Positions 1-581 of a DNA stretch of 967 bases are shown here, piece by piece; position 1 is the first letter of the stretch; each line of letters opens with the position of its first letter. The translations under genes and the position numbers were made by a program. Source of the DNA: Escherichia coli (GTDB lineage: Bacteria > Pseudomonadota > Gammaproteobacteria > Enterobacterales > Enterobacteriaceae); NCBI RefSeq assembly GCF_003334385.1, contig NZ_QOWN01000140.1; one strand, given 5' to 3'. The notes under the pieces are model-generated. The model was not told the DNA's origin. It made no database searches and saw only the letters and a list, made by a program, of their open reading frames with translations.

Positions 1-84
1 CTGGTATTTGGCCTGCTGACGTACCTGACAAACCTTTATTTCAAGATTAAAGAAGATAAGCGCAAGGCTGCGAGAGGTGAATAA
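1..84 (+). CDS. S: 3' end of a phage holin, phage 21 S-type pinholin (class II holin); 5' part lies upstream of the window
   Basis: Frame 1 is open from position 1 and translates to [27 protein letters not shown] before the TAA at 82..84. A hydrophobic stretch followed by a highly basic tail is typical of a holin transmembrane domain 2 plus cytoplasmic C-terminus. From memory it closely matches the C-terminus of phage 21 S (…[22 protein letters not shown]). The stop overlaps the start of the downstream endolysin (TAATG). Confidence 0.8.
72..78 (+). promoter_or_regulatory. Putative ribosome-binding site for R, inside the 3' end of S
   Basis: The purine-rich GAGAGGT ends about 5 nt upstream of the R ATG at 84. 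It lies within the S coding region, and the stop/start overlap TAATG suggests translational coupling. Confidence 0.4.
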
Positions 85-581
85 TGCCTCCATCATTACG
101 AAAAGCCGTTGCTGCTGCTATTGGTGGCGGAGCAATTGCTATAGCATCAGTGTTAATTACTGGCCCAAGTGGTAACGATGGTCTGGAGGGTGTCAGCTAC
201 ATACCATACAAAGATATTGTTGGTGTATGGACTGTATGTCACGGGCATACAGGAAAAGACATCATGCTCGGTAAAACGTATACCAAAGCAGAATGCAAAG
301 CACTCTTGAACAAAGACCTTGCCACTGTCGCCAGACAAATTAACCCGTACATCAAAGTCGATATACCGGAAACAACGCGCGGCGCTCTTTACTCATTCGT
401 TTACAACGTGGGTGCTGGCAATTTCAGAACATCGACGCTTCTTCGCAAAATAAACCAGGGCGATATCAAAGGCGCATGTGATCAGCTACGTCGCTGGACA
501 TATGCTGGCGGTAAGCAATGGAAAGGTCTCATGACTCGTCGTGAGATTGAGCGTGAAATCTGTTTGTGGGGTCAGCAATGA
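84..581 (+). CDS. R: SAR (signal-anchor-release) endolysin, T4-lysozyme-like muramidase (glycoside hydrolase family 24), phage 21 R-type
   Basis: Complete 165-aa ORF in the provided track. The N-terminus MPPSLRK is followed by a Gly/Ala-rich weakly hydrophobic segment ([20 protein letters not shown], residues 8-27), the hallmark of a SAR domain. The lysozyme catalytic triad is in its canonical spacing: E35 (gag 186..188), D44 (gat 213..215), T50 (act 231..233). From memory the protein is near-identical to phage 21 R. It sits directly after a holin and before Rz/Rz1. Confidence 0.95.
105..164 (+). other. SAR domain of the endolysin (residues 8-27), a releasable N-terminal transmembrane segment
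   Basis: [20 protein letters not shown] is rich in Gly and Ala and only weakly hydrophobic, as expected for a segment that inserts in the membrane and is released on depolarisation. It contains no cysteine. Confidence 0.8.

Follow-up and report, generated by a model that had tools for sequence, protein, structure and literature searches.

The lysis genes of phage 21 are described in a curated record (GenBank OL657228), which lists the antiholin/holin S21-71/68, a SAR endolysin, an i-spanin and an o-spanin, and which annotates a ribosome-binding site before each gene. Short stop/start overlaps of the kind found between such genes have been studied in other operons. According to the literature, spacings of -4 and -1 are the two most common prokaryotic junctions, and overlapping co-directional pairs amount to about 15% across 720 genomes (Huber et al. 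2019, PMC6728339). Phage genome papers routinely read a 1-nt stop/start overlap as suggesting translational coupling (e.g. PMC7556043). Coupling is reported to be most efficient at spacings from -4 to +3 (Brown & Wade 2025 review, PMC12548453) and to drop off quickly as overlaps lengthen, with none left at -25 (PMC12548453). Huber et al. tested five E. coli -4 pairs and saw coupling in four of them, strict in three (PMC6728339). In the same work, bioBF, a -4 pair with a very weak Shine-Dalgarno element, showed zero coupling. Because bioBF is uncoupled despite its ATGA, geometry does not predict the outcome. Strict coupling in E. coli went along with structure occluding the downstream start region (PMC6728339), and the coupling of the coat and lysis genes in phages MS2 and fr has been attributed to RNA unfolding or ribosome scanning (PMC12548453).

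The 967-nt stretch of DNA analysed here (the window) is a late-transcribed lysis cassette of a phage-21/DLP12-type lambdoid prophage, with the pinholin S21, the SAR endolysin R21 and the spanins Rz and Rz1. Its 967 bases hold four genes, namely the 3' end of the holin gene, a complete R reading frame, a partial Rz and an embedded Rz1:

1-84, plus strand: 3' end of the S21-type class II holin (pinholin) gene essD, last 27 codons, with the stop codon TAA at 82-84.
84-581, plus strand: R21/rrrD SAR endolysin, 165 aa, complete gene (Pfam PF00959 Phage_lysozyme, E=1.5e-45).
578-967, plus strand: Rz (rzpD), inner-membrane spanin subunit, first 130 codons, continuing past the window (PHROG 13, E=6e-67).
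798-967, plus strand: Rz1 (rzoD), outer-membrane lipoprotein spanin subunit, in the +1 frame of Rz, continuing past the window (PHROG 3198, E=2e-27).

The four genes fall into PHROGs families of holins, endolysins, Rz-like spanins and Rz1-like spanins. At the DNA level the window is 100% identical to a prophage in E. coli SCU-104 (source locus L002), where the genes carry the names essD-rrrD-rzpD. Phage 21 shares about 97% nucleotide identity with the window, and matches to it were found in 5,186 of 5,426 complete E. coli genomes. The junction coordinates relative to the genes are the same in OL657228 and in the window.

The holin fragment matches the PHROG holin families (E=8e-17). The full S gene, seen outside the window in the identical locus L002, has 71 codons and a dual start (protein MKSMDK…, Met1/Met4), and two transmembrane domains were read by eye in its product; together with the dual-start motif they mark a class II holin. 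The R protein is essentially identical to PDB 4zpu ('Lysozyme RrrD') and 3hde (phage 21 lysozyme), with E about 1e-111. As expected for a SAR endolysin, its translation shows an N-terminal SAR helix rich in Gly and Ala, and the triad E35-X8-D44-X5-T50, the E-X8-D-X5-T lysozyme motif given in PMC9239132. A start of R further 5' is ruled out by the in-frame TGA at 78-80. Rz1 shows a lipobox (…VVGC) and a Pro-rich tail, and its ATG at 798 is embedded in Rz in the +1 frame, which is the layout of a two-component spanin. Around the cassette in L002, a porin gene (annotated ompC, opposite strand, 698-1780) separates the antiterminator quuD from the lysis genes, and an iss/bor-type serum-resistance lipoprotein gene (3571-3864, opposite strand) follows Rz. 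This placement of ompC and iss/bor is the typical DLP12-like accessory-gene (moron) arrangement. The lysis cassette in the window is among the best-known ones; it had been described before together with its overlaps, and coupling at -4/-1 junctions is likewise an established idea.

The two stop/start overlaps pointed out in the preliminary description were borne out by direct reading of the sequence:

82-86, plus strand: TAATG, S stop/R start junction; TAA 82-84 and ATG 84-86 share A84; spacing -1.
578-581, plus strand: ATGA, R stop/Rz start junction; ATG 578-580 and TGA 579-581; spacing -4.

As had been described, S and R share one nucleotide, and the stop and start codons at R/Rz have two nucleotides in common, which makes a gene overlap of 4 nt. 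Both overlaps are real yet ordinary. When the spacings were counted for all annotated phage 21 CDSs, which give 60 co-directional adjacent pairs, -4 occurred in 14 pairs and -1 in four (together 18/60, 30%), and other overlaps occurred in 12 further pairs, so half of all pairs overlap. The two overlaps in the window are standard compact operon junctions, the commonest layout in bacteria and phages. Such an overlap is the default junction in phage operons and is not noteworthy alone. A second stop/start motif, TGATG, lies at 796-800 at the Rz1 start; its TGA is in the third frame and no ORF of at least 20 aa ends there, so motifs of this kind also arise without meaning.

This genome-wide habit of overlapping fits a reading in which there is no functional coupling at all: the four genes would initiate independently, and the overlaps would reflect genome compaction and the easy origin and persistence of NTGA and TAATG. 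The bioBF precedent, uncoupled despite ATGA, speaks for it as well, but the majority of tested -4 pairs were coupled. The spacings in the window, -1 and -4, both fall in the coupling range of -4 to +3. By analogy with the tested E. coli pairs, and from geometry, some coupling at these two junctions would be a reasonable expectation.

The strength of each Shine-Dalgarno element was computed by RNAduplex hybridisation to the 3' end of 16S rRNA, using 13-nt and 9-nt tails. The elements are as follows:

74-80, plus strand: GAGGTGA, Shine-Dalgarno element of R, inside the final S codons (AGA GGT GAA); 3 nt separate it from the ATG, or 5 nt if its GAGGU core is taken.
568-572, plus strand: GGGGT, weak Shine-Dalgarno-like element of Rz, inside R codons, 5 nt before the ATG.
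785-790, plus strand: AAGGAG, Shine-Dalgarno element of Rz1, with a 7-nt spacer to the ATG at 798.

GAGGUGA before R forms seven Watson-Crick pairs, a perfect 7-nt match, and reached -11.7 kcal/mol with the 13-nt tail and -7.1 kcal/mol with the 9-nt tail. It is annotated as the ribosome-binding site in OL657228 and is invariant in 81/81 close relatives, save single-base variants outside the core. GGGGU before Rz reached -6.9 and -5.4 kcal/mol with the two tails, respectively, and AAGGAG before Rz1 gave -8.3 kcal/mol with both. The Shine-Dalgarno energies of phage 21 downstream genes have a median of -8.1 and a 10th percentile of -11.7 kcal/mol, which places the R element in the strongest decile and the Rz element somewhat below the median strength. 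All three elements have a near-optimal aligned spacing of 4-5 nt. That every downstream gene carries a Shine-Dalgarno-like element at such a spacing is again in line with four independent initiations.

These energies change the picture given in the preliminary description, in which the elements of R and Rz were both taken as weak. The judgement stands for Rz (-5.4 to -6.9 kcal/mol) and fails for R (-11.7 kcal/mol). The Rz1 element had been singled out as strong; it is a good site (-8.3 kcal/mol), but that of R is stronger. The position of the R and Rz elements inside the preceding coding sequence was correctly recognised (74-80 and 568-572), and at the sequence level the ribosome-binding site of each downstream gene sits within the preceding gene. 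Independent initiation of Rz1, also proposed there, follows necessarily from its embedded position, and the good, accessible ribosome-binding site is in agreement with it. A weak Shine-Dalgarno element is not a valid criterion of coupling: overlapping pairs usually do have a Shine-Dalgarno element, which often promotes reinitiation, and its removal lowered reinitiation in 4/5 E. coli pairs (PMC6728339). The lesson is to compute Shine-Dalgarno strength instead of judging it by eye. An in-frame GTG occurs at 566-568 in the Rz frame, which is open after the TGA at 554-556, four codons upstream of the ATG at 578. It has no obvious Shine-Dalgarno element and falls in the 5' arm of a stem predicted at the Rz start, and it is probably not used as the Rz start.

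The strong R element bears directly on obligate serial coupling, in which the sites of R and Rz would be too weak by themselves and nearly all of their translation would come from ribosomes that had just finished S and R, respectively. In its favour, both spacings lie at the optimum for termination-reinitiation, and strict coupling was seen in three of the five E. coli -4 pairs; against it, the R Shine-Dalgarno is among the strongest in phage 21. A lambda-21 hybrid lysogen, (Sam R+ Rz+ Rz1+)21, lyses with the plasmid-borne pinholins S21 and N4 gp63 (PMC12642591, a 2025 preprint). Since this S amber lysogen lyses with a pinholin supplied in trans, functional R21 is made without complete S translation. 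The amber result is qualitative, showing that R21 is enough for lysis, and the paper gives no amber position (PMC12642591). It argues that S-to-R coupling is not obligatory and is at most partial. The overlaps in related cassettes also disagree with obligate coupling, as the same endolysin is found behind a holin overlap of -23/-29 and lambda S/R has -17, lengths at which coupling is reported to collapse; because of these overlaps, the endolysin is evidently expressed adequately where coupling should be poor. Lysogens of lambda Sam7 accumulate active R and lyse upon chloroform addition. The weak Rz Shine-Dalgarno and the sequestered Rz AUG (see below) would suit obligate coupling at the second junction, although the start regions of R and Rz are not unusually structured. 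Taken over both junctions, obligate serial coupling is very unlikely.

The literature was searched for translational coupling together with holin/endolysin, and only generic genome-annotation remarks were returned, with nothing on phage 21. No quantitative or direct measurement of coupling for this cassette was found in the accessible literature, primary phage 21 papers excluded. A re-analysis of lambda ribosome profiling does not mention the lysis genes, and a paper on stalled-initiation ribosome profiling (bioRxiv 10.1101/511675) mentions rzoD/rzpD only as an example.

The conservation of the junctions was examined first among close relatives, which are all at least 99% identical and so give no depth, and more widely by pattern scans and tblastn. 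Among 82 near-identical loci, TAATG is kept in every locus with sequence upstream of R. At R/Rz the same set (L003-L082) has ATGA in 69 loci and GTGA in 13. The GTG-start loci (13/82) read …CAACAGTGAGC…, where the -4 geometry is unchanged and the start codon is weaker. When viral contigs were scanned with the conserved 5' segment of Rz, 107 junctions were obtained, and ATGA precedes Rz in 106 of them, behind three unrelated kinds of upstream ORF: the lambda-type transglycosylase R (63), the R21-type lysozyme (36, and two more frameshifted) and a 31-aa hydrophobic ORF (5). The last one, MSMICFFMAALLALNGNDAWPWFLAVGVLMS, was seen in five loci. The same Rz 5' end thus follows unrelated ORFs (loci L091-L210, e.g. 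L178, L177, L207), always with ATGA, which indicates a mosaic boundary at or very near the junction. No other observation speaks as clearly for maintenance of the -4 junction before Rz as ATGA behind three unrelated genes. This retention, and that of the geometry as GTGA when the start codon changes, speaks against a complete lack of coupling.

The S/R junction varies with the holin type upstream of the same endolysin (loci L211-L330, e.g. L300 and L226, and L085). S21-type holins have TAATG in 91 viral loci, which were counted by the shared sequence context …GAGGTGAATAATG, and phage 21, cdtI and PY54 have it as well. With S149/P22-like holins, the overlap with this endolysin gene is 23-29 nt long (19 loci), and a third holin type before an R21-type endolysin forms an ATGA junction (-4, 2 loci). 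S/R spacings differ among more distant cassettes: lambda has -17, PY54 -1/-8, a Morganella phage -8, Vibrio phage Cla -14/-26 and phage 7888 +4. In the S149-like loci, R opens with ATG GCA ATG TCA and so offers two in-frame start codons; GenBank places the start at yet another one, Met10, which follows the holin stop by 4 nt, and the start assignment is uncertain there. Such variable spacing in homologous cassettes (phage 7888, PY54, the Morganella phage and Cla) would be expected if the genes were not coupled. Set against the retained ATGA, the coupling of most tested -4 pairs and a sequestration of the Rz AUG beyond synonymous expectation, the absence of functional coupling appears somewhat unlikely.

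RNA structure was examined at the start regions. Opening energies were calculated from local unpaired probabilities along the cassette mRNA for the region -15..+5 of each start. They were 7.1 kcal/mol for R, 6.4 for Rz and 4.4 for Rz1, with a transcript median of 6.4, corresponding to the 35th, 50th and 80th percentiles in the transcript, respectively. The translation initiation region of Rz1 is the most accessible of the four. Unusual occlusion was sought at the R and Rz start regions, and with opening energies near the transcript median neither is strongly occluded. Folds of 101 nt gave z-scores of +0.35 (R) and -1.0 (Rz). Two local structures were predicted:

74-90, plus strand: predicted hairpin at R, GAGGU 74-78 pairing with GCCUC 86-90, stop and start codons in the loop, -4.6 kcal/mol.
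559-586, plus strand: predicted 9-bp stem at Rz, 559-567 pairing with 578-586, Rz AUG and R UGA in the 3' arm, GGGGU in the loop.

The hairpin at R was considered as a coupling device that sequesters the Shine-Dalgarno element, and this was rejected. Among synonymous recodings of R codons 2-5, 82% match or exceed its stability, which gives no hint of selection for hiding the Shine-Dalgarno element; the hairpin probably just follows from the Pro-Pro-Ser-Leu codons. Codons 2-3 of R (CCU CCA, window 87-91) spell CCUCC, the 16S anti-Shine-Dalgarno core, right after the AUG. Natural variants of these codons are UCG CCA, UCG CCG, CCU CCG and CCG CCA, all of which pair partly with the Shine-Dalgarno in isolation, within synonymous expectation.

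The predicted stem at Rz has -7.2 kcal/mol alone and is part of the minimum-free-energy fold of the 101-nt context. Its stability exceeds that of about 97% of synonymous recodings (fractions 0.025-0.03; p about 0.03), which is of marginal significance as a single test against a uniform-codon null. The probability that the Rz AUG is unpaired is 0.10, versus a median of 0.64 among synonymous recodings. The cdtI-type and S149 variants have the stem as well, and at lambda-type R/Rz junctions a stem over the Rz AUG was not found (synonymous-recoding fractions 0.55-0.78). Covariation for the stem was sought among the relatives and no true case was seen; the only changes in the arms are A-to-G opposite U. 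These changes were dismissed as covariation support, being uninformative since the same Rz variants occur in stem-less lambda-type contexts. The modelled support for a stem over the Rz AUG is therefore suggestive and marginal.

Such a stem raises the possibility of structure-gated coupling confined to the R21-type junction, where the 559-586 hairpin would block de novo Rz initiation and its unfolding by ribosomes would tie spanin to endolysin synthesis, much like the coupling of coat and lysis genes in MS2. The 9-bp stem over the AUG, with its low unpaired probability and recoding fractions of 0.025-0.03, and its presence in the cdtI-type and S149 variants are what this reading predicts. The 101-nt z-score of just -1.0 and an Rz opening energy at the transcript median do not fit it, nor do arm changes that are only A-to-G opposite U and recur in lambda-type contexts without the stem, or a lambda-type junction that lacks such structure. 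We consider structure gating unlikely. Its strict form, in which the predicted stem in R21-type cassettes alone would make Rz synthesis strictly R-dependent and R would be largely independent of the pinholin, is even less probable. If strict gating were true, the spanin:endolysin ratio would be fixed, and the stem would be a lineage-specific structure-gated device that is absent from lambda-type cassettes with the same Rz.

The reading that we favour, with modest confidence, is a mixed one, in which R and Rz are translated by independent Shine-Dalgarno initiation plus a contribution from ribosomes terminating upstream. A single late mRNA would carry all four genes, since pR' and the Q-binding element are annotated upstream in phage 21 and no promoter or terminator lies between the genes. 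Ribosomes that finish the upstream gene may contribute by reinitiating or by opening local structure. R would initiate mainly through its own strong Shine-Dalgarno, and terminating S ribosomes possibly add to this; a substantial independent route for R is suggested by the strong Shine-Dalgarno and by R21 being made with an S amber codon. Rz probably depends to a greater extent on ribosomes that read to the end of R, which must melt the predicted 9-bp stem, and the coupled route probably matters more here because of the weak Shine-Dalgarno and an AUG within the stem; the conserved -4 geometry and the marginal structure test support this. Rz1 must initiate internally on its own good, accessible Shine-Dalgarno. 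From sequence and folding models, R-to-Rz coupling is more plausible than S-to-R coupling. The preliminary proposal that S, R and Rz are translated by coupled reinitiation therefore keeps its plausibility at R/Rz, where a weak Shine-Dalgarno, the stem and ATGA coincide, and is weakened at S/R by the strong Shine-Dalgarno and the amber result.

The relative amounts of holin, endolysin and spanin affect the timing and completeness of lysis. A stoichiometric tie between their syntheses would refine quantitative models of phage lysis, and knowledge of the coupling would aid the engineering of phage-21-type cassettes, e.g. holin swaps at constant endolysin output. Beyond such housekeeping the significance is small.

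Compared with known systems, the window is closest to the phage 21 cassette (OL657228) and the E. coli DLP12-type essD-rrrD-rzpD/rzoD, with which it agrees in gene order, -1/-4 junctions and annotated ribosome-binding sites; the differences are a few point changes, e.g. in the S tail upstream of the Shine-Dalgarno, and nothing substantial. It resembles lambda S-R-Rz-Rz1 in the homologous Rz/Rz1, the identical R/Rz ATGA and the embedded Rz1. Lambda differs in having an unrelated holin, an R that is an unrelated transglycosylase, an S/R overlap of 17 nt instead of 1 and no stem over the Rz AUG. The termination-reinitiation pairs (Huber et al. 2019, PMC6728339; PMC12548453) have the same junction geometry and a Shine-Dalgarno within the upstream gene, but their defining property is that the downstream gene depends on upstream translation, which for S to R would be at most partial by the genetic data. 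The MS2/fr coat-lysis pair offers another likeness: there, a structured region close to the 3' end of the upstream gene contains the start of a phage lysis gene, which resembles the predicted Rz AUG stem. Those are RNA phages with overlaps of -50/-38 nt and proven dependence, whereas the stem predicted in the window is short and marginally supported.
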